Of a stretch of 64,000 nt of DNA, positions 8,850-35,431 are shown in pieces. The notes under the pieces were generated by a model, which worked only from the letters and a program-made list of their open reading frames with translations, searched no databases and was not told the origin of the DNA. Numbering within the stretch: the first letter of the stretch is position 1; each line of letters opens with the position of its first letter. The stretch is taken from IMG/VR virus record IMGVR_UViG_3300042013_000103, one strand, 5' to 3'. Source of the stretch: a virus. Its lineage: Duplodnaviria; Caudoviricetes. The position numbers and the translations under genes are program-made.

Positions 8850-8894
8850 GGTGAAACTCCTGCTGTAGAATATCAAAACATAGTATTGACGGGA

Positions 8895-8924
8895 CATAAA
8901 GCCTCCCCGGGGGGAGGCGCATGG
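8895..8924 (-). terminator. hairpin terminator of the CATAAAG family
   Basis: CATAAAGCCTCCC-CGGG-GGGAGGC immediately after the 216-aa gene stop. Confidence 0.65.
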
Positions 8925-8925
8925 T

Positions 8926-9576
8926 TTACAAGGTAAACAGTTCTGCTGGCGGTACGGGGAGTTCTTCGATTGTGGTGGCTGCAGCCACGGCATCTTTAAA
9001 CACCCAGATAACCCGGTAACCGGCAGTCACGGCTTGGAACGCCGCGGTGGCCATGGTCACCATTTCCGCAGCGGTCAGGGAAACGCTGACGTTCTCATAG
9101 ACGCGGAACTCCACCGGGAACTCCACCGCCGCGTCCACGGCTTCCTTGGCCAGCATCCGCAGGGTGCTGATGTTCTGGCAATCCTTGTCCCGGATTTGAA
9201 CGTGGTAAACGTTCTCGCCGAACTGGTAAGGGAACCCTTGTTCAAAACGGTTGTCCCGCAACGTCTCTGCGTCGACCAGCAACTGGGCTTTCTTACTGAC
9301 CAGGTTGGCCGCTAATTCGGTTTCCGTAAACGGTCGGGCGAGCCACGTGCGGTAATAGCTACCGTCGCGCAGTTCGGGCACACCTTCCACCACAACGTCG
9401 CCCTGCGGCACGTCGGTGTCCAAGACTTCTTCGTAGCCCCATTCCAACAGGTCCGCCGCTTCCATGCGGGTGGGGAATTGGGCGTTGGGCAATCGTTCGC
9501 TCAACGCCGATAGGAACAACGGATACGTGCCCGTGGCCGTTTCAATAAGGCGGGTAGTGCGGGTGATGGTTGACAT
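8926..9576 (-). CDS. tail fibre assembly chaperone (DUF4376-like)
   Basis: WR..DN..V.LTAAEM-type pattern (FRVYENVSVSLTAAEMVTMA...KDAVAAATTIEEL); directly downstream of the long fibre gene. Confidence 0.7.
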   Translation of the reverse strand: MSTITRTTRLIETATGTYPLFLSALSERLPNAQFPTRMEAADLLEWGYEEVLDTDVPQGDVVVEGVPELRDGSYYRTWLARPFTETELAANLVSKKAQLLVDAETLRDNRFEQGFPYQFGENVYHVQIRDKDCQNISTLRMLAKEAVDAAVEFPVEFRVYENVSVSLTAAEMVTMATAAFQAVTAGYRVIWVFKDAVAAATTIEELPVPPAELFTL

Positions 9577-9636
9577 TAAAGAAAACCTCCTTATACAAAA
9601 TAGACAGCGCCCGGGTGGACGCTATCGCTATACGGC

Positions 9637-12600
9637 TTAGGCCTGTGTGGTTACCGCGCCTTGCGACGCAATCCAGATTTCCCCGTCCCACAGGAGGGTG
9701 ACCACAGTCTTCACACCAGTCAAGGCCGGTGGGGCACCAGCGTTCCACCGGATAGTGTTCCCGGCGGCGTTGCTGTAGCTCACCACACCCACAGTCCCTT
9801 TGATCACCAGTGTGATCACCATGGCCCGAGTGGCTCCGGGGTTGTTGATGATGGAGATGTCTTTCGCCGCGGACCCACTGTTGTCCAACGTGACCACTTG
9901 TTGCGTGGCGGCATCGATAATCACGGTAGCGGAAACCGCACGGATCGGCAGGCTATAGTTGTCGAACGACACCCACGCCAAGTTCTTCCGGACGTATTGT
10001 TTACCGTCGTTCGGAGCATCCACGATCCCAGCGGCCGGGGCCACGTACTGCACCCAGGTGTGGTCGCCTTTACGCAGGTACAGGTTGGCATCGGTAGGAA
10101 CGTCCGTGAATTCCACCCAGGTCGTATTTTGCCCACTGCGCAAGAAGGTTTTCCCAGCGGTGGTGGGGGCTTCTGGTACGCCCGCGGCAGGGATGACAAT
10201 CTCGGTCCACTTAGGTGCACCTTCGCCGGTGACCCAGTTCCGTGCATAGAGTTTGTCCTTGATCGCGATGTCCACAATACCCGGGCTGGCTTCCACCCAC
10301 GTACCAATCGCTTGCCCCACGGTCCGTACGCGAACGTACTGTTTGCCGTCATCGAGGGGTTCGTCGATCTGAGTGGGGAAGTCAATCACCACCCATTCGG
10401 TTTCGGTGGTGCTACCGTCCTTGCGACGACGCACATAGAACACGTCGGCTACCGGTGCGGTCACTTCATCAACCGGAAGGGCGACCCATTCGTTACCCAA
10501 ACGGACAACCTTGCCCAGACCCACCAACGGCGAGTTCACATCACCGGCCACCAAACGACCGACCTGCACCCAACCCGTACCTTCGACTTTGTAGAACGTA
10601 TCGAAGGTCTCGTTGACTGCCCAGTCGCCATCCACGCCGTACTGTGGCGTAGGTTCGTTCACGCCTTCCGGCAGCACCAACCACAGCGACCCACGTTCAC
10701 CTTTCTCACCGGTGTTACCTTTGAGACCGGTCAGGCCACGGATGCCTTGTTCACCTTGCGGACCCCGTACAGGACCTGCGTTGAACCACTCGGTGGCGCC
10801 GCCTACCGGGTTAACCCCGTAGAGGTACAGGTCACTGCCCACCAAATACCCCTCACCCGCGTTCCCGGTTGGGTGGGCGGCAATGAGCGCCGCTTCGGTC
10901 AGGTACGACCCCATAATGGTGATCGAAGTACCGGCAGCACCGGTTAAGCCAATCGGCCCTTCTTCACCCATCGGTCCGGTGATGTCCACACCCGGAGCGT
11001 ATACACCCGCTTCGGTCCGGACGTACATCAGTTTGGTGTCAGCGGTGAAATACGCGTCGCCGGTTTCCAAGGTCCCTGGGTTAGGCAATGCGGCCAGGTC
11101 GTCAACCGTGCCTTTGATGTTGATGCCATTGCCTTTTGGTCCGATGCCACCCACATCACCCGTTAACCCGGTGTCGCCTTTGAATTGACCGAGGTCAACC
11201 CAAGCCCCCGTGATCCACATGTACAGGTGCCCGGTGTCCAGCAGGGTGTACGCGTCCTGTTCGGCAGCCCCGACCGGGAGGGCGGCGAGGTTAGCAACCG
11301 CCCCTTTGATCTGAACGTTCGCCCCGTTGGTACCGTCCAGCGAAGCAACCCAAGCCGCCTCGGTCCCAACAAACCCGGCGTCCAACGCACTTTGATAAGC
11401 CGACTTACCGTCGGTGCCACGGAACGGACCTGCATCCACCCACGCATCGGTCACGTAAATGTAGAGATGACCGTTTTCCAATGCCACCCAAGCGTCTTGG
11501 TCCACACCCGGGAGGGCTTGGATTTCGGCGATGGTGGGTTTGGTGCCCTTGACCTGCAGGTTGGTGCCATCCGTACCGTTGGTCCCGTCGGTGCCATTGA
11601 GGGACAACAGCCATGCCGCTTCTGTGCCGACAAAACCACCCGCTACCGCGATTTGATAAGCGGAGTTCCCGTCGACGCCATCCGTACCGTTCAACGAATC
11701 CAACCACTGTTGCACAGTGCCCACGAACCCTTCGGTCACCGCGACTTGGTACGCCGATGGGCCGTTCAACGTGCCGATGTTCAAATAATCGGCCGTGTCG
11801 GTCAGCCAGACGTAAACACTCTGACCCACAATGTACGCATCGGTAGCCGTACCTGGACGGGGCAATGCGCCTTCATTGGCCACAGTGCCCACGATTTCGA
11901 AAGCCGGTACAGGATCGCCTTTATCGCCGGTATCACCCTTCGCGCCTTTCAGCGACAGGATCCACTGAGCTTCCGTGCCTACGAAACCGCCGTCGATGGC
12001 AATCTGGTAAGCGGACTTACCCGTGTCGCCGGTATCACCTCGGTCCCCCTGAATGGAGTCCAACCATTGTTGCTGGTTGCCCACGAACCCTGCATCGACC
12101 GCGATCTGGTAAGCAGACTTCCCTGGGAGCGACGCGATCCATTGCGCTTCGGTTCCGACGAACCCAGAATCGACAGCCGACTGGTACGCGGACTTACCGA
12201 CGGGACCCGGTACGCCGATGGACACCCATTCGCGCTCAGGAGCTTCTACCAAGGTCCACAGGTCATTGTTCCAGACGTAGGTATCACCCGCCACATAACC
12301 GACCCCCAGTGGCAACGGAACGCCGTTAGGCCACGTGCCCAAATAATTCAGGCCTTGGCCCGCTGGGCCAGTCAGGTCATTGGAAATCACCCAATCGGTG
12401 CCGTTGAAAATATTGAGGGTGGTGCCGACGATGTATGCATCGCCTTTAACAGCTTCGCCGTCCAAAACAATCTGGTCGTACTGTTCTTGTGAAACGGTGC
12501 CGATGACTGTGATGCCACTGCCTTGCAGGGATGCCAACCACTGAGCCTGAGTGCCGACGTAACCGCCGATGACCGCTAGGTCGTACGCAGACTTACCATC

Positions 12601-13671
12601 GTCGCCAGTCAGGCCGTCCTCGCCTTGCAGGGACGCTACCCACGCGGCTTCATCCCCTACGAAACCCAAATCCGTGGCGATCTGGTAAGCCGACTTGCCC
12701 ACCAATGTCGCCAACCACGCCGCTTCGCTCGGCAACGCTGGGTTCTCGAGTTTGGCCACGTCATACGCCGACAGACCCGGGAGACCGTCATCACCGTTGA
12801 GGCCATTATCACCCGTGAGTCCGGTGTCGCCTTTGAGGGAAGTGATCCACTGGGCTTCAGTGCCCACGAACCCCAACTCCACGGCCAGTTGATAGGCTGT
12901 TTTGCCTTCGAGCGACGTCAGCCATTGCTGCACCGTACCGCCGAAACCGGCATCGACTGCCACTTGGTAAGCCGTTTTACCTTTCAGGGTACCCAGCCAC
13001 TGGGCTTCAGTACCCACGTAGCCACCGTCCACTGCGGACTGATAAGCCGATTTGCCGTCTGGACCCACCAGGGTAAGCAACCATTCTCCAATGGTTCCAA
13101 CAAAGCCGTTTAACACAGCGTCGTCGTATGCGCTCAGACCAATCGGACCGATGTCCCCTTGATCGCCGTCTTCACCCTTATCACCCGTGGGGCCTTTTAA
13201 CGACGCCAACCATTGGGTGATGGTCCCTACATAACCCTCGGAAACTGCCAGTTCATAGGCGGTTTTGCCGATCAGCGAAGCAATCCACTGCGCTTCGGTC
13301 CCCACGTAGCCGCTCGACAGAGCAGACTCGTACGCCGATTTGCCGTTGTCGCCATCGTCACCTTTTACACCGACCAACGAAGCCAACCAGTCTGGCAGAG
13401 TACCGACAAAACCCAGTTCTTTAGCGAGGGTGTAAGCATCCTTGCCTGCCAAGCTGGTCAGCCATTGCTGAACGGTGCCGACGTAGCCGTTGTCAACAGC
13501 AACTTCGTACGCGGACTTACCCTCGTTATTGCGGATCTTAGAAACGAGCAGACGATAATTTTTAAAGGAACCGTCTTCCTCGCGTTTGATGACCTCAAGC
13601 ATCTCCTCACCGGTGATGGTGTTCAGTGGAGTCATATTAGAAATCATGCCTGGGTTTTCAGTATCTGCCAT
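9637..13671 (-). CDS. long collagen-like repeat tail fibre (1344 aa)
   Basis: 17 G(K/L/P/N)(S/T/D)AY..A...G(F/Y).GT...W..SL repeats, Gly-X-Y runs, 8 small beta nodes, 6 DAP.DGK.YVR-type repeats and a C-terminal LLWDGEIW domain. Confidence 0.85.
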   Translation of the reverse strand: MADTENPGMISNMTPLNTITGEEMLEVIKREEDGSFKNYRLLVSKIRNNEGKSAYEVAVDNGYVGTVQQWLTSLAGKDAYTLAKELGFVGTLPDWLASLVGVKGDDGDNGKSAYESALSSGYVGTEAQWIASLIGKTAYELAVSEGYVGTITQWLASLKGPTGDKGEDGDQGDIGPIGLSAYDDAVLNGFVGTIGEWLLTLVGPDGKSAYQSAVDGGYVGTEAQWLGTLKGKTAYQVAVDAGFGGTVQQWLTSLEGKTAYQLAVELGFVGTEAQWITSLKGDTGLTGDNGLNGDDGLPGLSAYDVAKLENPALPSEAAWLATLVGKSAYQIATDLGFVGDEAAWVASLQGEDGLTGDDGKSAYDLAVIGGYVGTQAQWLASLQGSGITVIGTVSQEQYDQIVLDGEAVKGDAYIVGTTLNIFNGTDWVISNDLTGPAGQGLNYLGTWPNGVPLPLGVGYVAGDTYVWNNDLWTLVEAPEREWVSIGVPGPVGKSAYQSAVDSGFVGTEAQWIASLPGKSAYQIAVDAGFVGNQQQWLDSIQGDRGDTGDTGKSAYQIAIDGGFVGTEAQWILSLKGAKGDTGDKGDPVPAFEIVGTVANEGALPRPGTATDAYIVGQSVYVWLTDTADYLNIGTLNGPSAYQVAVTEGFVGTVQQWLDSLNGTDGVDGNSAYQIAVAGGFVGTEAAWLLSLNGTDGTNGTDGTNLQVKGTKPTIAEIQALPGVDQDAWVALENGHLYIYVTDAWVDAGPFRGTDGKSAYQSALDAGFVGTEAAWVASLDGTNGANVQIKGAVANLAALPVGAAEQDAYTLLDTGHLYMWITGAWVDLGQFKGDTGLTGDVGGIGPKGNGINIKGTVDDLAALPNPGTLETGDAYFTADTKLMYVRTEAGVYAPGVDITGPMGEEGPIGLTGAAGTSITIMGSYLTEAALIAAHPTGNAGEGYLVGSDLYLYGVNPVGGATEWFNAGPVRGPQGEQGIRGLTGLKGNTGEKGERGSLWLVLPEGVNEPTPQYGVDGDWAVNETFDTFYKVEGTGWVQVGRLVAGDVNSPLVGLGKVVRLGNEWVALPVDEVTAPVADVFYVRRRKDGSTTETEWVVIDFPTQIDEPLDDGKQYVRVRTVGQAIGTWVEASPGIVDIAIKDKLYARNWVTGEGAPKWTEIVIPAAGVPEAPTTAGKTFLRSGQNTTWVEFTDVPTDANLYLRKGDHTWVQYVAPAAGIVDAPNDGKQYVRKNLAWVSFDNYSLPIRAVSATVIIDAATQQVVTLDNSGSAAKDISIINNPGATRAMVITLVIKGTVGVVSYSNAAGNTIRWNAGAPPALTGVKTVVTLLWDGEIWIASQGAVTTQA
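11335..13525 (-). repeat. in-frame ~25-aa SAY...GFVGT...WL repeats (17 copies) interleaved with Gly-X-Y tracts
   Basis: Counted by eye in the translation. Confidence 0.85.
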
Positions 13672-13764
13672 GTCTACGTTCCTTTAATGAAGAGAGTATT
13701 CGTCTATGGGACATTACGTCTCATCGAAATAAGACTCATAAATAAGGGCAGAACCCAAGCGGGA

Positions 13765-13800
13765 CGGCATAAAAGGCCCCTCCCCGAAGGGAAGAGCCCA
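13765..13800 (-). terminator. hairpin terminator of the CATAAA family
   Basis: Minus strand GGGCTCTTCCC-TTCG-GGGAGGGGCC-TTTTATGCCG. Confidence 0.7.
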
Positions 13801-13806
13801 GGTGAA

Positions 13807-14661
13807 TCACGGTGCGATGGTGCTCGCGGCGATGGTCCATGTACCATTACCTGCACGCACGGCACCCAGCTTCTCGGTCAAGAAGTCATGGAGTTGTTTT
13901 GCCGTCACGTACTTGGCGTCGTCAATGCCGAGGTCGATGTCGCCATCCACCCCCTTGACCACAGTGGAATCCGCGTTGACGTGCACATACGCTCCAGCCA
14001 CTTTCAGGTAGAGGCCTTCGGTGTCCAGGGTGTAGTAGAACGTATCCGCCAATGCGTCACCCACCACGGGCAATGCCGCAAAGTTTGCCACTTCAATGGT
14101 GACCTTACGAGCAGCGATCAGAGCGTCCACCGCGGCTTCGTCCAGACCGCTGACCAGTTTACCGCCGGCAGTCACGCCGTCGTGAATGTAAACCAGTTTC
14201 AACAGTTCGTCGTAGGAGAAACTTCCGACCGGGCCGACGTAGGTGGCGCTTTCAGCAGTGTCCAGTTGAACGACCGAGCGGTCCACGACTTTCCAAGAGC
14301 CGATACCTTCCACATCCGCAGTGAAGACCTTACCTGCGTTCGCGACGTCAGCTACGTACAGCCCGCGGAACAGTTCGGTCCATTGGGCTTCGGTGCCGAT
14401 AAACAGACCGGAATCCACGGCCAATTGGAAAGCCGACTTACCGGGCAAGGTGGCCACCCATTCCGCTTCCGTGCCCACGAACCCAGTGGCTACAGCCGAG
14501 TCATACGCAGAGGCCCCGGTGCGCAGCTTGTTGGAAAGAATCCGGTAGTTCTTGAACGTGCCATCGGCGGTGCGTTTCACCACCTCGACGTATTCGTCAC
14601 CGGCCAGCGATTGCAGCAGAGAAAACCCCGACAACATGTTCGGGTTGGTTAAGCTGGGCAT
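13807..14661 (-). CDS. short fibre/adaptor protein with the class-C N-terminus and an Mtd_N-like motif
   Basis: N-terminus is homologous to the 1344- and 1177-aa proteins. Has 2 SAY repeats, YVGPVGSFSYDELLKLVYIHDGVTAGG (Mtd N-terminal-like) and one beta node; no enzyme domain. Confidence 0.75.
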   Translation of the reverse strand: MPSLTNPNMLSGFSLLQSLAGDEYVEVVKRTADGTFKNYRILSNKLRTGASAYDSAVATGFVGTEAEWVATLPGKSAFQLAVDSGLFIGTEAQWTELFRGLYVADVANAGKVFTADVEGIGSWKVVDRSVVQLDTAESATYVGPVGSFSYDELLKLVYIHDGVTAGGKLVSGLDEAAVDALIAARKVTIEVANFAALPVVGDALADTFYYTLDTEGLYLKVAGAYVHVNADSTVVKGVDGDIDLGIDDAKYVTAKQLHDFLTEKLGAVRAGNGTWTIAASTIAP

Positions 14662-14706
14662 AAATCTATCCTTCTAGGTTTCAGTGAAATGTACTGCGGG
14701 TCAACG

Positions 14707-16536
14707 TCACACGGCTGGTGAAACGTGACTCTGTCTCAGGTAGGCCCAGTCGGTGCCGATCACACCTCCGGACCCGGTGGTTAACCGCTTGTGCCCGGTG
14801 AGCAGCATGGAGTTGGCGTCGAGGACCCCGTCCGTGCGTTCCACCAAGTCCCCTTGGGTAAAGGAACCGGCGTTGCCTGGCAGCGCATCCGACACCAGCT
14901 TGATCCGGCTACCGACGAAACGAATGAAACTGCCCATGCTGTTGATGGTGTTCATGGGACCGGCCGCGCGCGTTAGCCACAACACACCATTGACCGCATT
15001 GCCGTTGTCAAACATGAACGTGCTGCCCAGCGAATGGATGTCCACGTAGTGCGTGTACGTCCCGGCGACCGTGCCACGGTAGAGGCGAATGATCCCGTTG
15101 CGAGGAGACGTTGCAAACCCCACGTTGAGTACGTTCATCTTGTCCGCTTCGGCGACCAAGCTGGTTTCGGCGTTGACTGGGTTACGGCCCAAGGCACGTC
15201 CTGCGTCGTACAGCACCTGCACGTTGTAGTAGTAAGTGCCCACCGCCACTTTCCATTGGTTCACCCCAGTGCCGCGTACGCCCACTGCTTCCACTCGTGC
15301 CGAGGCAATGCCTTGGAACGTCGCATCGGCCATCCGTACACCGTGATCCAACGAGACAATGTTTGGAATGTCCACCACGCTTTTACGCGAGGTCAGGTAG
15401 GAGTAATTGTTGAAGCTCGGTACGGGGGTGATACCGTCCGCTTGGCAGATACGAATACCCGCCTGTTGATCACGCTGGAAGTCACCACGCACGGTCCACT
15501 GCTGCACTGCGTTGTCCACGATCAAGGACACCGAGTCCCCTTGCTGCACATGGAACCCCGACCAGTCCATGAGGTCTTCCACGTTCCGGAACCGGGTGTT
15601 CTGGAGCTTGACGGTAAACCGGGATTCGTTTGACGCCGAGGCAAAGGTCCCTTGGGTGATGATCGGGATGCGAGTGTCCGGCAAAAACTGACTGTCCACG
15701 GTTACGTCGGACGAATCGTAAATGTGCTGGGCGCGTTCGAAGTGCCCACCCACCAAGTTAATGTTGCCACACAGCTCGATCAAGTAATCACCGCCGATGC
15801 AACCTTCCACCGTCCCACCTTGGACGCCCCGCAACCGCATGGCTTTCATCGATTGCGCAGTGGCCACGGTGTACGGGCAGTGGATGTTCTTGGCGATGAA
15901 ACCGTCACCCAGCCCTAGGATGTCGAACTGGTAGGACAAGTTTCCCTGGGGGTTCTCGGCGATGATGTCACTCAGGTGGAAACTGTCCGTGTAGAAACCA
16001 GTCGGCCGCATGATGCTCTGGGTCAGGCCGTTGAACTTCAACTGTTCGAACTTCCCGGAACCGAAGCACTTGATTCCCTTGGCCGGGTTGACGCCATTGG
16101 GGTTGGTGAAGTTGCAGCGACTGAACCCACCGGTGTTCATGTTCGGGTAGGGGGTGGTCCAGGTGATCCCGTCCGCAGTGTTGATCATGAACATGCAACC
16201 ATCCACAAACGTACCGGTGTCCAGATGGAAGAACGACACATTGCGGGATTCACAGTCCACCCAGAAACCCGCAGGCAGGAAAACCGTGGACTCTACACCG
16301 TAGTTACCAGCGGGCACAAAGACCCCACGTTTTCCAGCGGCCACTGCCCGCGCAAAGGCCGGTTGCCAATTCTCCCCATCTGCAGGGCGCCAGAAGTCCA
16401 CCAAGCTGGGAGATTCATCCAGGCGATCCGCGATGGAACGGTTACCGTAGTTAATTTCACGTGCACCCTCCGGACCTAACAAGGCCAAGAGGTTGGGCAC
16501 ATACTTTGCCAACTTTGCTAATACGCCGAGAGCCAT
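14707..16536 (-). CDS. tailspike/depolymerase, predicted pectin-lyase-like beta-helix (class-B N-terminus)
   Basis: Start MALGVLAKLAK at 16536. The junction motif RSIADRLDESPSLVDFW...NWQPAFARAVAAG..GVFVPAG.Y precedes N/G/F/I-rich beta-helix coils. Confidence 0.8.
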   Translation of the reverse strand: MALGVLAKLAKYVPNLLALLGPEGAREINYGNRSIADRLDESPSLVDFWRPADGENWQPAFARAVAAGKRGVFVPAGNYGVESTVFLPAGFWVDCESRNVSFFHLDTGTFVDGCMFMINTADGITWTTPYPNMNTGGFSRCNFTNPNGVNPAKGIKCFGSGKFEQLKFNGLTQSIMRPTGFYTDSFHLSDIIAENPQGNLSYQFDILGLGDGFIAKNIHCPYTVATAQSMKAMRLRGVQGGTVEGCIGGDYLIELCGNINLVGGHFERAQHIYDSSDVTVDSQFLPDTRIPIITQGTFASASNESRFTVKLQNTRFRNVEDLMDWSGFHVQQGDSVSLIVDNAVQQWTVRGDFQRDQQAGIRICQADGITPVPSFNNYSYLTSRKSVVDIPNIVSLDHGVRMADATFQGIASARVEAVGVRGTGVNQWKVAVGTYYYNVQVLYDAGRALGRNPVNAETSLVAEADKMNVLNVGFATSPRNGIIRLYRGTVAGTYTHYVDIHSLGSTFMFDNGNAVNGVLWLTRAAGPMNTINSMGSFIRFVGSRIKLVSDALPGNAGSFTQGDLVERTDGVLDANSMLLTGHKRLTTGSGGVIGTDWAYLRQSHVSPAV

Positions 16537-16549
16537 ATATCCACCTTGT

Positions 16550-18295: not shown

Positions 18296-18296
18296 A

Positions 18297-18368
18297 GGTT
18301 CACCTCAAAATTTATCAGGGGGTTAGGGGAGGAACCTAGCCTCCCTTCCAGTTACACAACGGGCCCGA
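18297..18368 (-). repeat. imperfect ~70-bp direct repeat, copy 2 (relic gene end + hairpin + RBS)
   Basis: CGGGCCCGTTGTGTAACTGGAAGGGAGGCTAGGTTCCTCCCCTAACCCCCTGATAAATTTTGAGGT matches the copy at 18665-18730. Confidence 0.85.
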
Positions 18369-18391
18369 AACCCCTTAATGTGCGCTAGCCC

Positions 18392-18664
18392 TCATGGCTT
18401 AGGGTACCTGTCCTTGACAGACTGAACCAAAAGCCGCATGTCGTCCGCTTCGGTACCGCCTTTCCACAACGCATCCAGTTGATCCCGGATCGGAGGATAC
18501 GCGGCATAGCGCAACGCTTCGTAATCCGACGCCAGCACCACCGAACCTTTAACAGTAGTGGCCACTTCCACGTCCGCCTCCACCGCGCCTTCTGGCAGTC
18601 TCTCGGTGACCTCCCAATCCCCCACGCACAGCAGTTTCCCGTCCAGCAAATATACCTTAGCCAT
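18392..18664 (-). CDS. small tail fibre/spike assembly chaperone
   Basis: YEALRYAAYPPIRDQLDALWK...VKDRYPKP pattern typical of small fibre chaperones. Confidence 0.7.
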   Translation of the reverse strand: MAKVYLLDGKLLCVGDWEVTERLPEGAVEADVEVATTVKGSVVLASDYEALRYAAYPPIRDQLDALWKGGTEADDMRLLVQSVKDRYPKP

Positions 18665-18730
18665 AACTACCTCAAAATTTATCAGGGTTAGGGGAGATCT
18701 AGCCTCCCCCTCAGGTTACACAATGACCCG
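18665..18730 (-). repeat. imperfect ~70-bp direct repeat, copy 1
   Basis: CGGGTCATTGTGTAACCTGAGGGGGAGGCTAGATCTCCCCTAACCCTGATAAATTTTGAGGT, which includes the last codons of the upstream spike gene. Confidence 0.85.
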
Positions 18731-21052: not shown

Positions 21053-21135
21053 ACACACCTCCAAAGTAAAGGGCCCTTATCCAGAGCCCTAGGTAATCAT
21101 TAACTGGCAACAAACCAAGGTTCCGTCCTCTACAC

Positions 21136-23631: not shown

Positions 23632-23652
23632 AATGCCTCCGTGTTAGCAAGG

Positions 23653-23677
23653 TAAAGCCCCCGTCACAGGGGGCTTA
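23653..23677 (-). terminator. hairpin between spike genes
   Basis: TAAAGCCCCC-GTCACA-GGGGGCTTA. Confidence 0.55.
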
Positions 23678-23685
23678 GGTAACGA

Positions 23686-26319: not shown

Positions 26320-26359
26320 GAAACCTCCGAGGTTTTCAGTTGGCGTCGGCAGAACTTAA

Positions 26360-28210
26360 TTAAGTCAAGTTCGCCATGGCTCTAAAGGTAGCACCGGCCC
26401 CGGCCAGACCAGGTGTTGTGCACACCCACCCCATTGGGTTGTTGAGCGTGGCGCCGGGTTGCCAAACCCGAGTACCCAGTGTGTAGTAGAACCCGTTTGC
26501 CGGGATCACGGTGGAGTAGTGTTCGGTACAGCTGACCATTACCCACTCGGCAGGGGATGCCCCGATCTGGAAAACCCGTAGCAGGGTGATCGCCCCGTAT
26601 TGCGGAACGGTGATGTTGCCCAACCCGTTCAACGAAATGTTCCCGGTGTTGCCGATTGTGATGTTCCCCGTGAGAGGGCGAATAGTCACCGTTTCCCCAG
26701 GGGCTGCGGTGGCCGCGATGTCGGTCAGCTTGATCGATTGATCCGCGGCTGGATTGACCACCACGTACCGGTGGGCTTTAAAATCCAACATGGTCCCGTC
26801 GATGAGCAGTGTCTTGTTAGACGCGGCTTTGTACTTACCAACGGTGTTCCCCGAAGGCATGCCTTTTAGGTTCATGCCTAAGATGGCGTTGAAGTCCACC
26901 GCGGGGTCGAGGTAGTTATCGACGATGCCCTGGGTTTCGTTGGTACCGTCGAACGACAGGTAAGCGTTGCCACTGAGGCTGTACAGGTAACCCTGAGTGA
27001 CGGTCGGTAGGAACCGCGTACCGTCGGCAGCGTTAGGGCAATGGTTCTTCTGCGCATGCACCCTAGCGTTAGCGGCCAAGGTAAACAATTTCCCGATGCC
27101 TTCAAACCAGCATTCTTGAGCGAAGATGGCCCGAACGTTCCGTGCGTACATCCCATACTGGGCCTTCTGCATGGAAAATTGACTGCCAAACGTCACGTTG
27201 ATCGGGGCCAACACCGCCGTGGCCTGCCCGGGGGTGTGCGTTGGGTCTTCGCCTTGACCGCTGGCCGCATCGGCCATGGTTGCTGGGTCCGGGTCCCAAT
27301 CCAACGTAATGCAGCGCCAGGCCGTCACACCATCTCGTCCTTCAGCACTGCCACCCCGGAAGTCGATCTGTCCATGTTGCCCGGTCATGCGCAAGGCTTC
27401 GCCACCCTCAGGGACTTGAAAGAACACCTTGTCGAACGTCAGGAACTGGATCGGGCGTTTGTAGTTACTGTTGGTGTAGCCGCCACGCGTCCAACCACCC
27501 TTATTAAAGTTGGAGAACCGTACATCGCGACATTCCGAGAACCACCACCCGCCATGAAAATACGCTTCGTCCCATTGGGCTTTGGCGTACAGGCCCCATT
27601 GATCAGGGTTGAGTGTCGGTTGAGCATGCCCCGGGATAACACTGCCTTGGAAGTGAATGCCCACGATGTGAGACGACGACACCGCTCCGCGTTCGATCTC
27701 CACCATGCCATACGGCACCGTGGAAGTCCGTGGCAACGCTGTGATGTACGTGCAACTCGACCCGTCACCGAGATCGCTCACCGAATGCAACTTGGTGAAC
27801 ACGGTGTGCGGATACGTGCCGGACGGGTATTTCACCCAACCACCGCCCTTGGATTTTACGTAGGCTGTGGCCGCGTTTCGAGCGGGGGTCCAATCCCACG
27901 TACTGGGTGACACCCCCGGTTTGTCGGTGATGCGGTCCGCGTATTCCCAGATGTTCACGGTGAGGCCCGACAACATGAGGCTAACGTTGGTGATGGTTTC
28001 GGCCAGGACCGTACGCTCGAAGCCCAGTTTCTCAGCCCCATCGGGATTAGTCAGTTCAGAGATGGCCGTAGATACCGCCACCTCTGCAGCCTGTTGCGCC
28101 TGGTCGCGGGCTTCAAACACCTCGTTCTTAGCCTGTATAACCGTGTTCTTTAAATCGTTATTGATGACGCCCAATGCGTCAATAGATGCCGCTAGTTGAT
28201 CGTACGACAT
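26360..28210 (-). CDS. tailspike/depolymerase, predicted beta-helix (class-A N-terminus)
   Basis: MSYDQLAA; LGFER..L..NIWE..TWDWTPA module; GGGWVKYPSGTY entry into the beta-helix. Confidence 0.8.
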   Translation of the reverse strand: MSYDQLAASIDALGVINNDLKNTVIQAKNEVFEARDQAQQAAEVAVSTAISELTNPDGAEKLGFERTVLAETITNVSLMLSGLTVNIWEYADRITDKPGVSPSTWDWTPARNAATAYVKSKGGGWVKYPSGTYPHTVFTKLHSVSDLGDGSSCTYITALPRTSTVPYGMVEIERGAVSSSHIVGIHFQGSVIPGHAQPTLNPDQWGLYAKAQWDEAYFHGGWWFSECRDVRFSNFNKGGWTRGGYTNSNYKRPIQFLTFDKVFFQVPEGGEALRMTGQHGQIDFRGGSAEGRDGVTAWRCITLDWDPDPATMADAASGQGEDPTHTPGQATAVLAPINVTFGSQFSMQKAQYGMYARNVRAIFAQECWFEGIGKLFTLAANARVHAQKNHCPNAADGTRFLPTVTQGYLYSLSGNAYLSFDGTNETQGIVDNYLDPAVDFNAILGMNLKGMPSGNTVGKYKAASNKTLLIDGTMLDFKAHRYVVVNPAADQSIKLTDIAATAAPGETVTIRPLTGNITIGNTGNISLNGLGNITVPQYGAITLLRVFQIGASPAEWVMVSCTEHYSTVIPANGFYYTLGTRVWQPGATLNNPMGWVCTTPGLAGAGATFRAMANLT

Positions 28211-28225
28211 AATGCCTCCACGGCT

Positions 28226-28987
28226 TCAAAAAGCGGTGATTCCGTAATTATCAGCTAACAGTTCGCTCAGGTAGGCCATGTTTTCATCAACTTGTGCCTG
28301 CGTAAGTATTACGTTTTGAAGGGCTACTAGCCCAACGTTCGACGTGCCGGTCTCAACCGATGGGGATGACCCGATCCGCAGTGTATCGCCGGTGTATACA
28401 GTCCTTGAAACCGATGCTGACGGGGCGGTCCATGTGGTTGTTCCGTTCTTGCGCCAGCCGGTCTTAGCTACACCGGTGGAATCGGTGATGGCTGCGAAAC
28501 CATTCCAAGCATCGGCTGCGCCGGCTACTGACAGCGCTGCGGCTTGGCCAGAGGTGGCCAAGGTCCTGTCGAATCGGTTGAGCAAGAGGTTTGGTTCTTC
28601 CCAGGTGAATGCATCACCCCGGTAGTTGCCACCAGTGTATCGTCTATTACTAACCAAAACCGATCGATCGGCACTCGCCGCCGCTAAGGATGGCTTGGCG
28701 ATTACCGTCCAAGTACGATCCGCGCCGGTCGTAATACCGGTATCGAAATAGTTAGCCGCGCTAAGGGTTGCTCCGAAGGCACCCATAACCGGAGCACCCG
28801 CAGCCACCAGCGGCTTGGTGCTATCTGCGAAATTTCGGAGTGATGCGCTGGCGCTTCCCCCTAGCAGATATAATCCAACGAGGCCCGCAGGATTCGGCAG
28901 GCTGATGTCAAGAAAACTCAGCAGGTTAGGGTGATTCCCTGGAAGAACCACTGCATCACCAAGCTTTAAATAATTTGAAATTGCCAT
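28226..28987 (-). CDS. concanavalin-A/LamG-like lectin-fold protein, partner of the SGNH spike
   Basis: Beta-rich with S..N..D...PL...G.P, YFDTG, LRIG and L...Q...N..Y pattern; starts 7 bp after the SGNH spike stop. Confidence 0.6.
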   Translation of the reverse strand: MAISNYLKLGDAVVLPGNHPNLLSFLDISLPNPAGLVGLYLLGGSASASLRNFADSTKPLVAAGAPVMGAFGATLSAANYFDTGITTGADRTWTVIAKPSLAAASADRSVLVSNRRYTGGNYRGDAFTWEEPNLLLNRFDRTLATSGQAAALSVAGAADAWNGFAAITDSTGVAKTGWRKNGTTTWTAPSASVSRTVYTGDTLRIGSSPSVETGTSNVGLVALQNVILTQAQVDENMAYLSELLADNYGITAF

Positions 28988-28993
28988 GTAAGT

Positions 28994-31018
28994 TTACCTG
29001 TCGTTAAGAAACAGCGTAGCCAGGCGCCCTGCACTAAGTGCGGCCCCAGAGTTACTTGGATGGAAACCATCATTAAAGCCACCCAAGGCATTCATTTGTG
29101 CCCATGTACCGAACTCGTCATACAGGCTATAAAACTCACAGCCTAGGGAAACCGCAAGCTGTGACAGGGCATCGCGGAACTGGACGAGCGGAACTGTCGC
29201 CACGCCATCAGTCCGCGCTGGGGCGATCAGGATAATGCCCATGTCCGGAACTGCGGCTCGGTAAGCGTTTACCAAGGTCGTTATGTGAGCCTTAAAGTCC
29301 GCAATGGTCACGCCAACACGATAGTCGTTGGTTGAGAGGATGATGCCCAGTAAACTTGGATTCATCTTGGCGGCGTAGTAGCCGATCTGGCTTGCATACA
29401 CCGCGAGATTCTGGGCGATAGCACCCGAGTTGCCGCATTTGCTGAGGACCGCCCCCGAGACGGCTGAGCGGGTAAAATACAACCCGTGTACACGTACAGT
29501 GCCGGTGTTGCCGATGGTCCTGACCTCTATCGTGCGGGGTGTATTGTCGGCCATGCCGGTGAGCTTGACTGACATGGTGGTATCCGTGTTGCCGCAGACC
29601 ACTGTGTTCCATGTGGCTGAGTCAGAAGCCTTGTATTGGAAGGTCCCGTCTAAGTCCTGATAGAAAATCTCAACCTCGGTGGAGGTAACCAGATTGACAA
29701 TGTAGCGTGCATCTGTCGCCGTTGTCCACATCGATCGCCCATCAATCCCACACCCGTGATCTGGGGCTACCCCAGCTAACCCACCCGTGGATGCATCGTA
29801 AGTATTCCATAGGCCCACCAATACGGCGGTTATTCCATTCAACGTATTCGTGCCGGTGTTTATGCTGACCCAACCGTCGGAACTCTTTCCGAATAAGGCG
29901 TAGAGCCTGTCCGCAATTGCTTGAGACATGGGGGATAGCTCAGCCCAGGAATCCCCAGTGATGATCACGTTTACCTGCGATAAACTCCCCGTTCGTAGTT
30001 TCGCAGCGTTAGCGCGGTATTTGTACAACGTTCGCGAGTCTGAATGCGACTTGGCTAAGTTGATGTTGGCGGTAACGTTGGGCAGGATGGCGGAGATCAA
30101 GCTCGGCGACAGACCCGAGGCTGCGAACAGCCCATTCTCCAGCCAAACCGGTACGTTATTAGCCGAATCGACGAAAAGAGGGACCAGCGCATTAGAACTG
30201 TTATTTGTGGGGATTACCCGTTTAAGTCCTACCGCATTAATAACCATATCCAAAAACGACTGTGCGAGTCCTGTGGCCGCTAACATCCCGTTCTCAAGCC
30301 AAACCGGCACGTTCTTTACCGAGTCAACCCAAAGCGGTACACGGTTATTACTGGTAGAGTAAGTTCCTAACTTGTTAGCTACCGCGTTCTGGCTTGGATA
30401 ACGCTTGATTTCCAACGCACTGCCAGCGTCATTTTTATACAGGATCAAGTATTCTGCACTCTCCGCTGAGGGCACACTGAAATACTCCCCGCTTACGGTG
30501 GCGGCGAGGCCTTGGGCCACGGTATCCTTGATGTTATTATTCAACAGGATGGCGTCATGTGCAGCCGCTGCGAGCACGGCGGAAGCTCCTGCCTCCGTTG
30601 CTGATTGCTGTGCCGTTGTCACTAAAGGCACAATGACGTTTTTAGTTTCTTCTACTTCATCCGCCGACTGTTGTACCTCCACCGCCACAGCTTGGACTGC
30701 TGTTTTTGCAGCCAAAGTATCCGCTGCAGATACTGCTGCCGAGTCGCGAGCACTGCCTGCTTGTACTGCAGCAGCTTCTGCGGTGGTTACCCCGGTAGCC
30801 AACGCCAGTGCAGAATCCGCGGCATCGAGCGCAGCCTGTTGGGCCTGTAGGGTCAAGTCTTGCGTTTCGGTGAGCGTCGTCAACACATCCACAGCGAAGC
30901 CTTGTGCTCTGTCGCGGGCGGTTTCCGAGGCCGTGCGCACAGACTCGGCAGCAGCGGTTAATTCGTTATTGCTGGCAGTCAACAAGTCTACCGCAATAGC
31001 AAGAGATTCGTATGACAT
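28994..31018 (-). CDS. tailspike with SGNH/GDSL esterase domain (putative O-antigen/capsule deacetylase; class-A N-terminus)
   Basis: MSYESLA; Ala-rich stalk; GLAATVSGEYFSVPS...LILYKN...EIKRYPS head domain; SGNH blocks VIITGDSWAE, CGNSG, LSTND and FNDGFHPS. Confidence 0.8.
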   Translation of the reverse strand: MSYESLAIAVDLLTASNNELTAAAESVRTASETARDRAQGFAVDVLTTLTETQDLTLQAQQAALDAADSALALATGVTTAEAAAVQAGSARDSAAVSAADTLAAKTAVQAVAVEVQQSADEVEETKNVIVPLVTTAQQSATEAGASAVLAAAAHDAILLNNNIKDTVAQGLAATVSGEYFSVPSAESAEYLILYKNDAGSALEIKRYPSQNAVANKLGTYSTSNNRVPLWVDSVKNVPVWLENGMLAATGLAQSFLDMVINAVGLKRVIPTNNSSNALVPLFVDSANNVPVWLENGLFAASGLSPSLISAILPNVTANINLAKSHSDSRTLYKYRANAAKLRTGSLSQVNVIITGDSWAELSPMSQAIADRLYALFGKSSDGWVSINTGTNTLNGITAVLVGLWNTYDASTGGLAGVAPDHGCGIDGRSMWTTATDARYIVNLVTSTEVEIFYQDLDGTFQYKASDSATWNTVVCGNTDTTMSVKLTGMADNTPRTIEVRTIGNTGTVRVHGLYFTRSAVSGAVLSKCGNSGAIAQNLAVYASQIGYYAAKMNPSLLGIILSTNDYRVGVTIADFKAHITTLVNAYRAAVPDMGIILIAPARTDGVATVPLVQFRDALSQLAVSLGCEFYSLYDEFGTWAQMNALGGFNDGFHPSNSGAALSAGRLATLFLNDR

Positions 31019-31065
31019 GATTTTTCCTTGTCGGATAAAGGGCCACTGAGTGACCCTGTATTGTG

Positions 31066-34000
31066 TTAACCGCCGTTGCGCTTGGTTACTAGAACGCGCA
31101 CAGACATTGATGGTAGATCTATGGCCGAGGCAGTGTTGTTACGCAAATACACCAACACGTTACCCGTGGTTACTACAAAAGCGTTAACCGCGATCAAACC
31201 CACATCGGCCGAAAAGGATACTTGTACAAAGTCTCCAACTTCGGCACCCAGAATAGCGAAGCTGGGTGCCACTTGGCTGCCCGCTGCAATACTTGGTGCG
31301 TCGTAGGTGAAGCTACCGTAGAGCTGAGCACGCATGGACTGCCGCTTAACGGTTGCGTTGTTCACCACTAGGCCCGTGGTGCCCGTACCGGTGTTACCGC
31401 CTTCGTAACCATTTTGCACGGTAGCTTCAATATCTACCACGAATGTCTGGTTACCGGTTACGCTCTCCATGTGGTTATCGAAGATACGTGCCGTTACCGC
31501 ATTTTGTACCCGGATGCCCAGGCCCGAGCCGGACTGTGCGTTGTCCACACCGATCACGTTGTGGATGTCCACGAGGTTAACGTAGTTAACATCAATGGCC
31601 CCTAAACCATTGCCCCCGATAATCGCACCGTCGACTTTGACCAACCCAGCGTTTTGCAGATAGTTAGCGCCGCCCGAGTTGCTGATGTTCACCCCGTAGT
31701 TATACTGAGCATTCACCTGCACTTTACCGTTGTTACGCACTTCCGTACCTGGTTCAAGGTGTAGGAAACTGACCCCTCGACCAAAGATACCCGAGGCATC
31801 GTTGTCGTTGAACTTACCTTTGGCATGGACCCGGATCAGGTTACCAGTACCGTTGAAGATAGCCAAGCCGGCATGACCACAGGCAGTATGTTCACCTTCT
31901 ACGCGTGCTGTGCCGACGTTAGCAATAACTACCCCGTTACCGAACAGGCCATTGGGGTTACTGCCGATATAACGAATGTTCCACGATTTGCAGTTAGGGT
32001 CAATGGTGATCCCATCTGCATCGATATAGAACCCTTGCTCACGGCAATTCCATGCCCAGCAACCGTAGAAACCACCATCGTATTTCTTGGTGTCCGGTGC
32101 CCCAAAGCTATCTTCATAGCTGTACCCAGCACGATTTCGCTGACTGCGGTTATTCAGGAAATAGATGCCCGAAGCGTTATAGGCCGTCATACCGAAGTCT
32201 TGGTTGTCTTCAGCCGTGCAATTAGACACCACACCGTAGCTGTAGGTATCAAAGTTACCGTATTCCCACACTGGTCCCCAATCCGTGGTGGCCGAGAAAC
32301 CATTGTCTTCTTTGGCCCGGGTGAATTTGCAGCCATCGATGATCTGGTTGCGGCAACGCATGGTGGAGAACGAGTCGATAGGGCCGTTGTCAGCCCACAC
32401 GTTGTACACCCGCAGGTTGTCGATGTAGCTAAAGCGCACGGCACTGTCGTTGTCCGAACCATCGCCATGAGCGTAGGTGAAGGTCATCTGGTCGGCGTTA
32501 CCATTGATGTAGGCCCCGTTACCAAATACCGTCACATTCTTCAAGGCCACCGCCGGGACGTTGATGGTGTCCGAAGCGAACACAAAAGTCTTCTGCCGCG
32601 TCGTTGCCGTCAATCGAACGTTGCCATGGTGGAACAATGTGAAGTCGGAGATGTCGAACAGCACTTGACTGTCCACCGTCCATTCACCCACGGTAAATGG
32701 GATCAACAATACCCGTGACTTGGTCTTGTTTTCTCTCAGCGCCTCGATGGCCCGGAGCAAGGCAGGTCTGATGTTGGACCCTTCAGCCGGTAACTTGAAG
32801 TCGTCAATCGAAACCGCCTGTTCCAACAACTTGTCCTGAATGAATCGGGACACTGCGTTGTCGCCCCCTTGAATAGTAGTTACTACGGAAGCACCCGGTG
32901 TTACCCCTGTGGCGATCAACAATTGCTTGAAGGCATTGACTTCCGCTTGCGCGGCATCAGCTGCAGCCGGTACAGCAGCCTGCGCTAACAACTTACTGGC
33001 GTTTGCCTCCGCCGATGCCGCCACCGCAGTAATGGCATTCGCTTCAGCATCATCCCGGGCATCCAGAGACTGATCACGGTAACCGGCGGCTTGTTGCGTG
33101 CTGGCTAGAACCAGGTCCTCAGTGGCCTTGGCATTGATCTCTGCTTGCTCTGCTGCTGTCTGTGCAGTTTCTGCCCGGGTTGCTGAAGTGTCAGCTGAGG
33201 CAGCGGCAGCATCAACGGTAGCGGCACCTTCAATGGCCTCGACTGCCGCTTGTTGGGCTTGCAATGTCAAGGTTTGCGTGGTCGTTAGCGACTCCAAGGC
33301 GTCAACCGCGAACGCTTCCGACGCGTCCCGCGCAGTGACTGCTTGCAGCGCAGCGGTTTGCGTGGACGTTACTGCCAGGTCCGTGGCTTCTTTGGCGGTG
33401 CTAGCCAGCAGCGCGGCGGCCTGTGCTTCCGTCCGTGCCGATAACGAATCGATGGCAAAGGCTTCGGAGGCGTCCCGCGCCGTAAGGGATTCCAACGCAG
33501 AAGCCCCGGCGGCATCTTTGGAAACCACAGCTTCCGCAGCAGCAGCTTCGACTTCGCCCTTGGTAACCACGGCGGCTGCTGCGATGACTTCAGTGGCGTC
33601 CTTAGCAGCGACCGTTAACTGGAGTGCTGCTTCAGCCCCGTCTTTGGCAGTGGTTGCATCCGTCACCAACCCTTCGAGATCCCCTACGGTGTTCGCCGCA
33701 TTGGCTGCGAACGCTTCAGCTGAATCCCGCGCCTCGCCAGCCTGTTGGGCCGCGGTTTGGGCAGTAGAGGAAAACCCTTGCGCCGCATTCCGTGCCGTAA
33801 CCGTTTGACCCAACGCTGTTTGGACGTCAGCGGCCAGCGTCACGGTGGTGTCTTTAGCAGCAACTGCTTGACCGGCGGCGGTTGCTGCCGCCCCTGCACT
33901 GGTGCCTGCGTGCTGTTCCGAAAGCAAGGCTGCAGCTGCGCTGGCCTCCGCCTCGTCTTTACTTTGGACCGTCAGGTTCTTTGCTGCTTCCACTGTTGCA

Positions 34001-34599
34001 GCGGCTGCCACCACGGCAGTATGGGCATTAACCACGATGGTGCGGTCGGTGGCCACTTCTTCAGCTAACTCTTCCGTCCGCTGCGCATCGCCTGAGGCTT
34101 GGGACGCAGCGATCAAGGCAGAGTCTCTGGCAGCATTGGCACCGGTAACGGCCCCAGCGGCTTGTGCGGCCGAGGTATTAGCCGCCCCTGCGGAGGCTTG
34201 GGCAGCGGCAGCCGAGGTGTAGACCTGGAGCAAAACGCTGTCCAGTTCTTCTTGCAGTCCTTCCACAATCGCGATGTCAACGGTGGTCCACCGCCCCACA
34301 CCCTGTTGGTCGGCCATCAAGACCTTGCCGTACATGGAACTGTTTCGCGCGTACAGCGCGTGCGTGCAATCCAGCCACTGTTGCAAGGTACCAATGAAAC
34401 CGTTACTCACGGCAAAGTCATAGGCAGTTGCGGCAGCTCGGAGTTTGTTAGCCAACACCCGGTAGTTCGTATAGACACCCGCCGAGTTGCGCTTGACCAC
34501 TTCTACGTATTCTTCCCCGGACACGGTTTGCAGAAGTGGAAAGCCCGACAGTTTGTTCGGGTTGGCTGGAGGGTCCGGCAACAGGTTTGGAGCGGTCAT
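31066..34599 (-). CDS. long-stalk tailspike: class-C N-terminus, ~450-aa Ala-rich coiled coil, beta-helix depolymerase
   Basis: GASVVTTIQGGDNAVSRFIQDKLLEQAVSIDDF junction, then N/D/G-rich right-handed beta-helix coils. Confidence 0.8.
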   Translation of the reverse strand: MTAPNLLPDPPANPNKLSGFPLLQTVSGEEYVEVVKRNSAGVYTNYRVLANKLRAAATAYDFAVSNGFIGTLQQWLDCTHALYARNSSMYGKVLMADQQGVGRWTTVDIAIVEGLQEELDSVLLQVYTSAAAAQASAGAANTSAAQAAGAVTGANAARDSALIAASQASGDAQRTEELAEEVATDRTIVVNAHTAVVAAAATVEAAKNLTVQSKDEAEASAAAALLSEQHAGTSAGAAATAAGQAVAAKDTTVTLAADVQTALGQTVTARNAAQGFSSTAQTAAQQAGEARDSAEAFAANAANTVGDLEGLVTDATTAKDGAEAALQLTVAAKDATEVIAAAAVVTKGEVEAAAAEAVVSKDAAGASALESLTARDASEAFAIDSLSARTEAQAAALLASTAKEATDLAVTSTQTAALQAVTARDASEAFAVDALESLTTTQTLTLQAQQAAVEAIEGAATVDAAAASADTSATRAETAQTAAEQAEINAKATEDLVLASTQQAAGYRDQSLDARDDAEANAITAVAASAEANASKLLAQAAVPAAADAAQAEVNAFKQLLIATGVTPGASVVTTIQGGDNAVSRFIQDKLLEQAVSIDDFKLPAEGSNIRPALLRAIEALRENKTKSRVLLIPFTVGEWTVDSQVLFDISDFTLFHHGNVRLTATTRQKTFVFASDTINVPAVALKNVTVFGNGAYINGNADQMTFTYAHGDGSDNDSAVRFSYIDNLRVYNVWADNGPIDSFSTMRCRNQIIDGCKFTRAKEDNGFSATTDWGPVWEYGNFDTYSYGVVSNCTAEDNQDFGMTAYNASGIYFLNNRSQRNRAGYSYEDSFGAPDTKKYDGGFYGCWAWNCREQGFYIDADGITIDPNCKSWNIRYIGSNPNGLFGNGVVIANVGTARVEGEHTACGHAGLAIFNGTGNLIRVHAKGKFNDNDASGIFGRGVSFLHLEPGTEVRNNGKVQVNAQYNYGVNISNSGGANYLQNAGLVKVDGAIIGGNGLGAIDVNYVNLVDIHNVIGVDNAQSGSGLGIRVQNAVTARIFDNHMESVTGNQTFVVDIEATVQNGYEGGNTGTGTTGLVVNNATVKRQSMRAQLYGSFTYDAPSIAAGSQVAPSFAILGAEVGDFVQVSFSADVGLIAVNAFVVTTGNVLVYLRNNTASAIDLPSMSVRVLVTKRNGG

Positions 34600-35430: not shown

Positions 35431-35431
35431 G

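Follow-up and report, generated by a model that had tools for sequence, protein, structure and literature searches.

Gene content of the spike cassette

The window analysed here, a 64,000-nt stretch to which all positions refer unless another contig is named, belongs to the 308,580-bp genome contig of a phiKZ-like jumbo phage. Between positions 8926 and 34599 it carries a block of 13 genes, ten of which encode fibre and tailspike proteins with three recurring kinds of N-terminus. All 13 genes lie on the minus strand and are separated by gaps of 6-135 bp, which bears out the single co-directional block after the endolysin described in an earlier note on this DNA. The endolysin gene (34618..35451, minus strand; PF11860 at 1.6e-57 and PF01471 at 5.5e-16 in Pfam; PG_binding_1 and N-acetylmuramidase domains) forms the upstream border of the block. 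It occupies the position of phiKZ gp144 and is found in the same place in Psa21, PhiPA3, RVTF4 and D6. On the other side the block is flanked by four paralogous structural genes (5035-8993).

The N-termini of the fibre and spike proteins fall into three classes, and sequence comparison upholds the sorting of the earlier note (four proteins of class A, three each of classes B and C). Class A, carried by g674 (28994..31018), g616 (26360..28210), g877 (23686..26319) and g831 (21136..23631), takes the form of an amphipathic helix, about 25 aa long, that begins MSY[EAD][QS]LA and shows 36-60% identity across the first 25 aa; g831 and g877 remain 75% identical across 211 aa. Class B, carried by g782 (18716..21052), g581 (16550..18295) and g631 (14707..16536), is a peptide of about 20 aa that begins M.[IV]G[VL]L[TA]KLAK, with 55-65% identity across 20 aa. 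The class C head, 75-130 aa long, is found on g1177 (31066..34599), g284 (13807..14661) and g1344 (9637..13671), with 41-47% identity across 66-127 aa (E 2e-15 to 8e-28); the N-terminus of g1177 is 42% identical to that of g284 (E 8e-28) and 47% identical to that of g1344. The common starts are visible as DNA repeats too (families D4, D10 and D12). The bodies behind these N-termini are mutually dissimilar in an all-against-all BLASTP comparison, as had been claimed, with the exception of a 49-aa C-terminal motif common to g581 and g631 and a 90-aa neck common to g616 and g877.

The first gene of the inserted cassette, g1177, combines the class C head (residues 1-130) with an Ala-rich coiled-coil stalk (residues ~130-555) and a beta-helix tailspike body. 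Among the class A spikes, g616 is short and g877 and g831 are long, g877 consisting of the A helix, an XD-like jellyroll, a head domain resembling those of TSP1 and gp63.1, a beta-helix and Phage_depo_C. The AlphaFold2 model of g831, built on an alignment of 23 homologues, has a mean predicted local distance difference test (pLDDT) score of 78.9 and is a right-handed beta-helix tailspike. Its parts are a helix (3-33), a jellyroll (39-106), a second helix (113-138), a small domain (144-192), the beta-helix (230-690) and a C-terminal sandwich (712-830). In Foldseek it matches the tailspike of Acinetobacter phage P1 (6e1r) at E 4e-13, followed by CBA120 TSP3 and TSP2, LKA1 gp49 and HK620. The class B spike g782 comprises 778 aa when counted from the ATG at 21052, which is preceded by GGAGG and lies 4 codons within the listed TTG open reading frame (ORF); g631 comprises 609 aa when counted from the ATG at 16536, which has a ribosome-binding site and lies 22 codons within the listed GTG ORF.

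The earlier note had counted seven beta-helix spikes. Five of them stand: g831 by its model, and g631, g782, g877 and g1177 at the level of the family. Homologues of g631 carry PF12708, those of g782 carry PF12708 and Phage_depo_C, and g877 itself matches Phage_depo_C at 8e-9 together with tailspike PHROGs. The Beta_helix match of g1177 is weak, and PF13229/NosD is carried by P0025, a more distant relative with the same N-module. For g581 and g616 the fold is a lead, given by atlas scores of 0.91-0.93 to Tail_spike_N and PF12708 clusters in the former and by a pectate-lyase-like start motif in the latter. The one SGNH spike of the earlier note is confirmed in g674, in which the class A helix and a coiled coil precede an SGNH/GDSL esterase body (Lipase_GDSL_2 in Pfam at 1.2e-9, GDS at residue 355, DxxH at residue 650). 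PDB sequence searches with g631, g581, g782, g284 and the g616 family profile returned nothing useful, and an NCBIfam search gave no match for eight proteins of the block. In g782 the C-terminal domain (about 140 aa, residues ~635-777, window 18716-19140) is of an extremely common kind, with more than 1,000 representatives at E <1e-10; many of these are free-standing proteins 155-200 aa long.

Relation to the gp145/gp146 locus of phiKZ-like phages

The major capsid gene of the contig shows 82% nucleotide identity to those of PhiPA3 and RVTF4. The class C head matches 98 phage records, mostly of phiKZ-like Pseudomonas and Ralstonia phages and in several copies per genome, and tblastn finds it at 40-53% identity in Psa21, PhiPA3 (gp164/165), 201phi2-1 and phiKZ-group records. 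The genes of these relatives are annotated as virion structural proteins, and PhiPA3 annotations equate them with phiKZ gp145 and gp146. On sequence comparison, class C is the N-domain of the gp145/gp146 family, encoded after a gp144-type endolysin, and is not the new peptide the earlier note took it for, as the domain is already known across phiKZ-like Pseudomonas phages. In phiKZ, gp145 and gp146 have no transposon insertions and are termed putative tail fibres (bioRxiv 10.1101/2025.11.23.690004). DUF7941, the 'fibre cloud' family of Goslar, was also considered as an identity for class C and rejected: the Pfam match is absent, and that family maps to phiKZ gp126/127/143. The Goslar preprint states that tail fibres could not be assigned.

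Comparison of the same locus in the closest relatives, proposed in the earlier note, shows a much simpler arrangement. In Psa21, D6 and RVTF4 the endolysin is followed only by a small class C adaptor and a fibre of 1,360-1,500 aa, which may precede a DUF4376 gene or three paralogs; PhiPA3 has a few further gp145/146-like fibre genes at the locus. None of the four cultured relatives Psa21, PhiPA3, RVTF4 and D6 has class A or class B spikes. Since these spikes are missing from the syntenic locus, positions 14707-34599 (~19.9 kb) appear as an insertion into a standard locus.

The remaining class C genes and g216 belong to the conserved part. The long fibre g1344 is of the gp146 type (phrog_3904 at 8e-188) and matches the fibre of Psa21 along its whole length at 48% identity. 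Most of it is built from a 75-nt (25-aa) repeat, SAY..AV..GF.GT...W..SL.G, which occurs at least 12 times; the fibre also has short G-x-y runs, to which the term 'collagen-like' used for it in the earlier note can still be applied, but the protein as a whole is mainly made of the SAY repeat. Single copies of this repeat occur in g284 and g1177, and the repeat is general among fibres of the gp145/146 family. The adaptor-like g284 is kept across the lineage. The adaptor is one fused gene in the window (284 aa) and in RVTF4 (339 aa), and is split into genes of ~200 and ~160 aa in Psa21, D6, G002 (a complete genome introduced below) and L004/L005; the loci compared include L001 19980-21090 and L003 16966-18076. 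The last gene of the block, g216 (8926..9576), encodes a DUF4376 protein (PF14301 in Pfam at 3e-13), homologues of which, 36-61% identical, occupy the same position in Psa21 and in the three complete genomes G001, G002 and G003, always after the long fibre.

Two of these three genomes (G001, 283,622 bp; G002, 317,367 bp; G003, 310,743 bp), namely the IMG/VR jumbo genomes G001 and G002, have a cassette of the same kind. A whole-genome motif census found one class C, three class A and two class B genes in G001, and four class C, four class A and two class B genes in G002. In both genomes every class A and class B gene lies within the cassette, and the order is constant: class C spike, short class A spike, long class A spike, class B spikes. 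G003 has class C proteins only (a 977-aa spike, an adaptor and a fibre). The cassette of G001 lies ~130 kb away from the locus of endolysin, fibre and DUF4376 protein, which indicates that the cassette is self-contained and headed by its own class C spike.

Other parts of the block appear to be acquisitions particular to the window phage, namely the SGNH body of g674, g253 and g90, for which homologues were not found in the three complete genomes. The product of g253 (28226..28987) is a LamG/ConA-like jelly-roll protein without an anchor peptide (phrog_4390; atlas feature score of 0.98-0.99 to LamG clusters, structural template modelling score of 0.7-0.8), in agreement with the lectin-like gene of the earlier note. 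The two chaperones of that note were not confirmed: g216 is a DUF4376 protein, and the 90-aa ORF g90 (18392..18664) matches phrog_9114 at 2e-10 and yielded no informative match. An exact 19-bp direct repeat, CCCTGATAAATTTTGAGGT, lies on the minus strand at 18302-18320 and 18669-18687, just upstream of g581 and g90, with 0.01 matches expected by chance; it may be a recombination scar of the acquisition of g90 and g581, or a shared expression signal. A scan for sigma-70 promoters and terminators gave a result no better than chance, and no match to the block turned up in a megablast search of 50,697 phage records.

Shared modules and candidate docking partners

The long class A spikes g831 and g877 share an N-module of 200 aa with 48 invariant columns among 13 sequences. 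Folded alone, the module of g831 reaches a pLDDT of 70 (78-88 in the beta domains). In structure comparison residues ~37-108 of the model form a beta-jellyroll that matches the whole of the XD2 and XD3 domains of CBA120 TSP4, and residues 141-205 are similar to the head domain seen in G7C gp63.1 and in CBA120 TSP1/TSP3. A predicted jellyroll of XD2/XD3 type is therefore present N-terminal to the tailspike body in g831 and g877. The earlier note could not see gp10-like docking domains in this block; by fold a candidate is there, although sequence-level homology is missing. In TSP4 and gp10, XD2 and XD3 are surfaces that bind partner trimers (PMC8825819).

The same module is found in two further phage types, each time next to class B peptides. 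The 70.8-kb contig L031 is N4-like, with N4 gp1/gp2 and an SU10-type portal. The first 68 aa of its anchor spike match N4-like phages of P. putida and are followed by the jellyroll module (40% identity) and a g1177-like body (60%). Two class B spikes lie directly downstream, one of them 79% identical to g631, class B peptide included. Of all L031 proteins, only these three spikes have homologues in the jumbo DNA used for comparison, which comprised the window and the G001 and G002 loci. In the N4-like contigs L084 and L088 an anchor with the jellyroll is likewise followed by one or two class B spikes. In the third phage type, represented by L034 and L085 (contig of 182,859 bp; the 183-kb type), a 'MELKNYF' anchor is fused to the jellyroll, and the next gene encodes a spike of type B' (MSIGKITSLVNL...) with a g831 or g782 body (68-90% identity).

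A jellyroll-bearing spike thus stands directly upstream of the B or B' spike in all eight complete loci (window, G001, G002, L031, L084, L088, L034 and L085); L033, which is cut at a contig end so that the region upstream of its B' spike is unread, is left out of this count. The co-occurrence, the gene order, the three unrelated virion backgrounds and the fold together suggest that class B docks on the jellyroll module. By analogy with G7C, where gp63.1 docks on gp66, this would be the simplest reading of the class B peptide. The pairing of jellyroll and class B also occurs in N4-like podophages, the group that contains G7C, and to this extent the architecture is less different from known ones than the earlier note had supposed.

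The bodies of the window spikes recur behind other N-termini. In the window and G002 the g616 body stands behind class A; its G001 counterpart (77% identity) is preceded by a class C head and stalk, and its L088 counterpart (53% identity) by an N4 anchor with the jellyroll module. The g581 body, which has class B in front of it in the window, is joined to a long class A module in G001 (84% identity). The g631 body is found behind class B, class A, PF08400 or an anchor of MSxIMxxNPFxFF type; this anchor has the Pfam label P22 Head_binding only on P0012, a homologue of the g831 body. The g831 body itself is found behind class A, B', P22 Head_binding, Tail_spike_N and PF08400 anchors, and homologues of g782 have T7, P22 or TSP1-type anchors. 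More generally, the anchors on database homologues of four bodies (g831, g631, g616 and g782) are P22 Head_binding, TSP1/gp66 Tail_spike_N, the T7 tail-fibre N-terminus or PF08400. Spikes that share the g1177 body, at 60-72% identity, occur on an N4-like contig and on a fragment of the 183-kb type. The presence of one body behind different N-terminal classes in related phages indicates that the N-termini act as exchangeable anchors, as the earlier note had suggested, and to judge from the sequences the pattern is the one commonly seen where particle-binding N-modules are combined with receptor-binding bodies that can be exchanged. The host of the window phage is probably a Pseudomonas, since its relatives infect Pseudomonas and its spike bodies are 53-90% identical to those on contigs with P. 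putida N4-like anchors. The GC content is 53-60%.

G002 also encodes a protein of 444 aa in which a class C head is joined to a stalk (L026 17648-18982), followed by a beta-helix-like protein of ~410 aa without an anchor (L026 19167 to L003 764); the pair, which spans G002 221647-224395, may represent one spike divided in two. The 183-kb type has a comparable pair, of 188 and 683 aa (L034 12045-14659).

The socket for class A is more difficult to place. In the alignment class A sits where the other phage types have their virion anchors, ahead of the jellyroll module, and this replacement is the behaviour expected of a plug. In the jumbo phages class A spikes follow a class C spike with a long Ala-rich stalk. 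In the 183-kb type they lie one gene downstream of a protein that combines the MELKNYF anchor with an Ala-rich stalk (L034, L085), and in L033 directly after such a protein. The stalk of g1177 shares the motif ARD[SA][AS]EAFA with the class C spikes of G001 and G002, and a looser likeness of the surrounding segment of ~36 aa reaches the stalk proteins of the 183-kb type. The sites of this motif number four for four class A spikes in the window, four for four in G002 and four for three in G001, a correspondence that is suggestive numerology only. Our best guess, and a rather doubtful one, is that class A might dock on the Ala-rich stalk of the class C spike.

Other docking nodes had been considered in the earlier note. 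The four paralogs at 5035-8993 (311, 307, 313 and ~326 aa, the last counted from the ATG at 8849) were rejected as such nodes because their family is widespread and multi-copy in jumbo phages without such spikes, and the idea of g1344 as a node found no support. The paralogs belong to a 'virion structural protein' family that is present in 114 phage records, with 4-8 copies in the Erwinia and Pseudomonas jumbo phages listed, and in RVTF4 the paralogs follow the fibre. The 374-aa ORF listed for one paralog overlaps g216, and its real start is probably an internal ATG with a ribosome-binding site.

The proposed spike cluster, its alternatives and its meaning

With reasonable probability, the block provides an uncultivated jumbo phage of the PhiPA3/Psa21 type with its receptor-binding module, and encodes a branched cluster of spikes held together by plugs and sockets. 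The standard locus of endolysin, gp145-like adaptor, gp146-like long fibre and DUF4376 protein would have received, in the ~19.9 kb between endolysin and adaptor, eight tailspikes (seven of putative beta-helix type and one SGNH) together with g253 and g90. The class C head would fix g1177, g284 and g1344 to the virion. The class A plug, a helix of ~25 aa, might attach g674, g616, g877 and g831 to a socket that moves together with the class C spike, and the class B peptide of g782, g581 and g631 would dock on the XD-like jellyroll of g877 or g831, as co-occurrence, synteny and fold suggest. The folds of the eight enzymatic bodies point to a broad glycan repertoire, and recognition of up to eight glycan types is a reasonable expectation. 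Whole bodies and anchors would be swapped by recombination at module borders, also with N4-like podophages of the same sample series.

Several observations weigh against this reading. The phage is known here from its genes alone, and it is from these that both the presence of the spikes in the virion and their pairing are deduced. In G003 a stalked class C spike occurs without any class A spike, which weakens docking on the stalk. In L083 a class A spike with the jellyroll lacks a class B gene in its neighbourhood. Searches of Pfam, PHROG and PDB sequences gave no match over residues 35-110 of g831 or g877 that would reveal homology to gp10 or XD domains. Complex prediction of three g831 N-modules with three class B peptides gave a score of 0.00, which does not support the pairing of class B with long class A spikes and is evidence neither way. 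Finally, the phiKZ structural atlas builds the fibres from gp131/133/134/135 and never mentions gp145/146 (PMC13250141). L083 is also of interest in its own right, as the spike (9974-12424 of an 84,719-bp IMG/VR contig) places the class A peptide and jellyroll in a fourth phage background, and the 935-aa protein preceding it shares a repeated 'FSVPSAE...' segment with g674.

The class C spike without passengers in G003 and the jellyroll without class B in L083 would suit an arrangement without any branching, in which the three classes represent three kinds of direct attachment site on a phiKZ-type baseplate or neck and spikes of the same class compete for equivalent sites or share them out, giving mixed or variable spike sets. 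The same short peptide would be expected to fit the same socket, and the periphery of the phiKZ baseplate is very large, with twelve fibre sites and density without assignment (PMC13250141). Class B peptides, however, are 55-84% identical in N4-like and 183-kb loci that share only spike proteins with the jumbo DNA compared, so a baseplate socket specific to phiKZ-like phages cannot be the partner of class B, and the constant gene order of socket protein followed by guest also speaks for branching. We regard direct attachment as an unlikely but serious alternative.

It is very improbable that all of the eight enzymes, or some of them, are absent from the virion and act as soluble depolymerases or esterases, freed at lysis against capsule or biofilm, with N-termini that are oligomerisation helices or leader helices irrelevant to export. 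Such a role is compatible with a phage seen only through its genes, with g253 and g90, which have no anchor, and with the two related loci in which anchor-less beta-helix genes lie beside anchor and stalk genes. Against it, the bodies are elsewhere fused to P22 Head_binding, to the T7 tail-fibre N-terminus, to the TSP1/gp66 N-terminus and to PF08400, the head of g1177 is the same as that of the essential fibres of the lineage, and the genes lie within a late structural block. Recent tandem duplication or gene conversion of 5' ends, with no meaning for docking, is the least credible explanation of the likeness within classes: the 5' ends of g831 and g877 do show 71% nucleotide identity across 300 nt (D4) and the exact 19-bp repeat precedes g90 and g581, but distant genomes retain these peptides on different bodies, even as the bodies themselves diverge or are replaced, and conservation ends sharply at module borders.

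Branched systems of multiple tailspikes are already known from CBA120, from G7C and from phiK64-1, RaK2 and phiKp24, and the gp145/146 head is known as well. The window resembles CBA120 (Kuttervirus), with its TSP1-4, in having adjacent tailspike genes with unrelated beta-helix bodies and a hierarchy of host and guest spikes (PMC8825819), and its putative jellyroll matches XD2 and XD3 of TSP4 and is followed by a head domain of TSP1/TSP3 type. In contrast to CBA120 and T4 gp10, the module has no sequence-detectable homology to XD/gp10 families and provides one jellyroll per host spike; the guests bear peptides of ~20-25 aa rather than folded head or XD domains, the primary anchor would be the gp145/146 head and not the TSP4 anchor domain, and there are eight enzymes as opposed to four. 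In G7C, too, an anchor spike with XD-type domains (gp66) carries a second spike (gp63.1; PMC8825819). Contigs of the N4-like group to which G7C belongs (L031, L084 and L088) carry the jellyroll module and the class B peptides of the window. Both systems include an SGNH spike: gp63.1 is reportedly an SGNH esterase spike, and its counterpart in the window is g674. Unlike in G7C, the jellyroll spike of the window would itself be a guest through class A, which adds one tier, and PDB sequence searches detected no homology of the class B peptide to any solved N-terminus of gp63.1.

The Alcyoneusvirus phages phiK64-1, RaK2 and phiKp24, with hyperbranched fibres, are also jumbo myophages with many depolymerase spikes, which in their case form a branched arrangement (PMC9700779, PMC10253068). 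They belong to another family without a nucleus and infect Klebsiella, and their anchor modules were not recognised in the window. The relationship to phiKZ gp145/gp146, PhiPA3 gp164-166 and 201phi2-1 gp230 is of a different kind, with class C heads 40-53% identical, the same position after the endolysin and the same 25-aa repeats. The known members of the phiKZ gp145/146 type are fibres or adaptors only, whereas the window phage and G001-G003 fuse the head to a coiled-coil stalk and a putative beta-helix enzymatic body. What would be new is the occurrence of such a system in the nucleus-forming phiKZ-like lineage, its three tiers with two short peptides, and the sharing of the middle and lower tiers with podophages. 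In the phage records and literature searched we found no earlier description of such a system in nucleus-forming phages, and a 2026 review of jumbo phages does not mention a tailspike or depolymerase for the phiKZ-like group.

These observations bear on host recognition by nucleus-forming phages, which is poorly understood; the 2026 structures of phiKZ and Goslar leave fibres unresolved and the fibres of gp145/146 type unlocated. A chimallivirus lineage with eight putative enzymatic spikes would mean that the strategy of capsule and O-antigen depolymerases, employed by Klebsiella and Kuttervirus phages, is open to this group. The shared short docking peptides are testable handles for mapping the positions of gp145/146-type proteins, and the same peptides could serve to retarget spikes in laboratory phage-host systems. 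Tentatively, we extend the reading to a code of three tiers (the gp145/146 head, the class A helix, and the jellyroll with class B) that may move whole tailspikes between phage types of one habitat, these being nucleus-forming jumbo myophages, N4-like podophages and the 183-kb type; in chimalliviruses a tree of up to eight enzymes would then hang from the gp145/146 site. If this is true, the cassette is a marker of an attachment site yet to be located in the cryo-electron microscopy maps of phiKZ and Goslar, and offers a way to study it.

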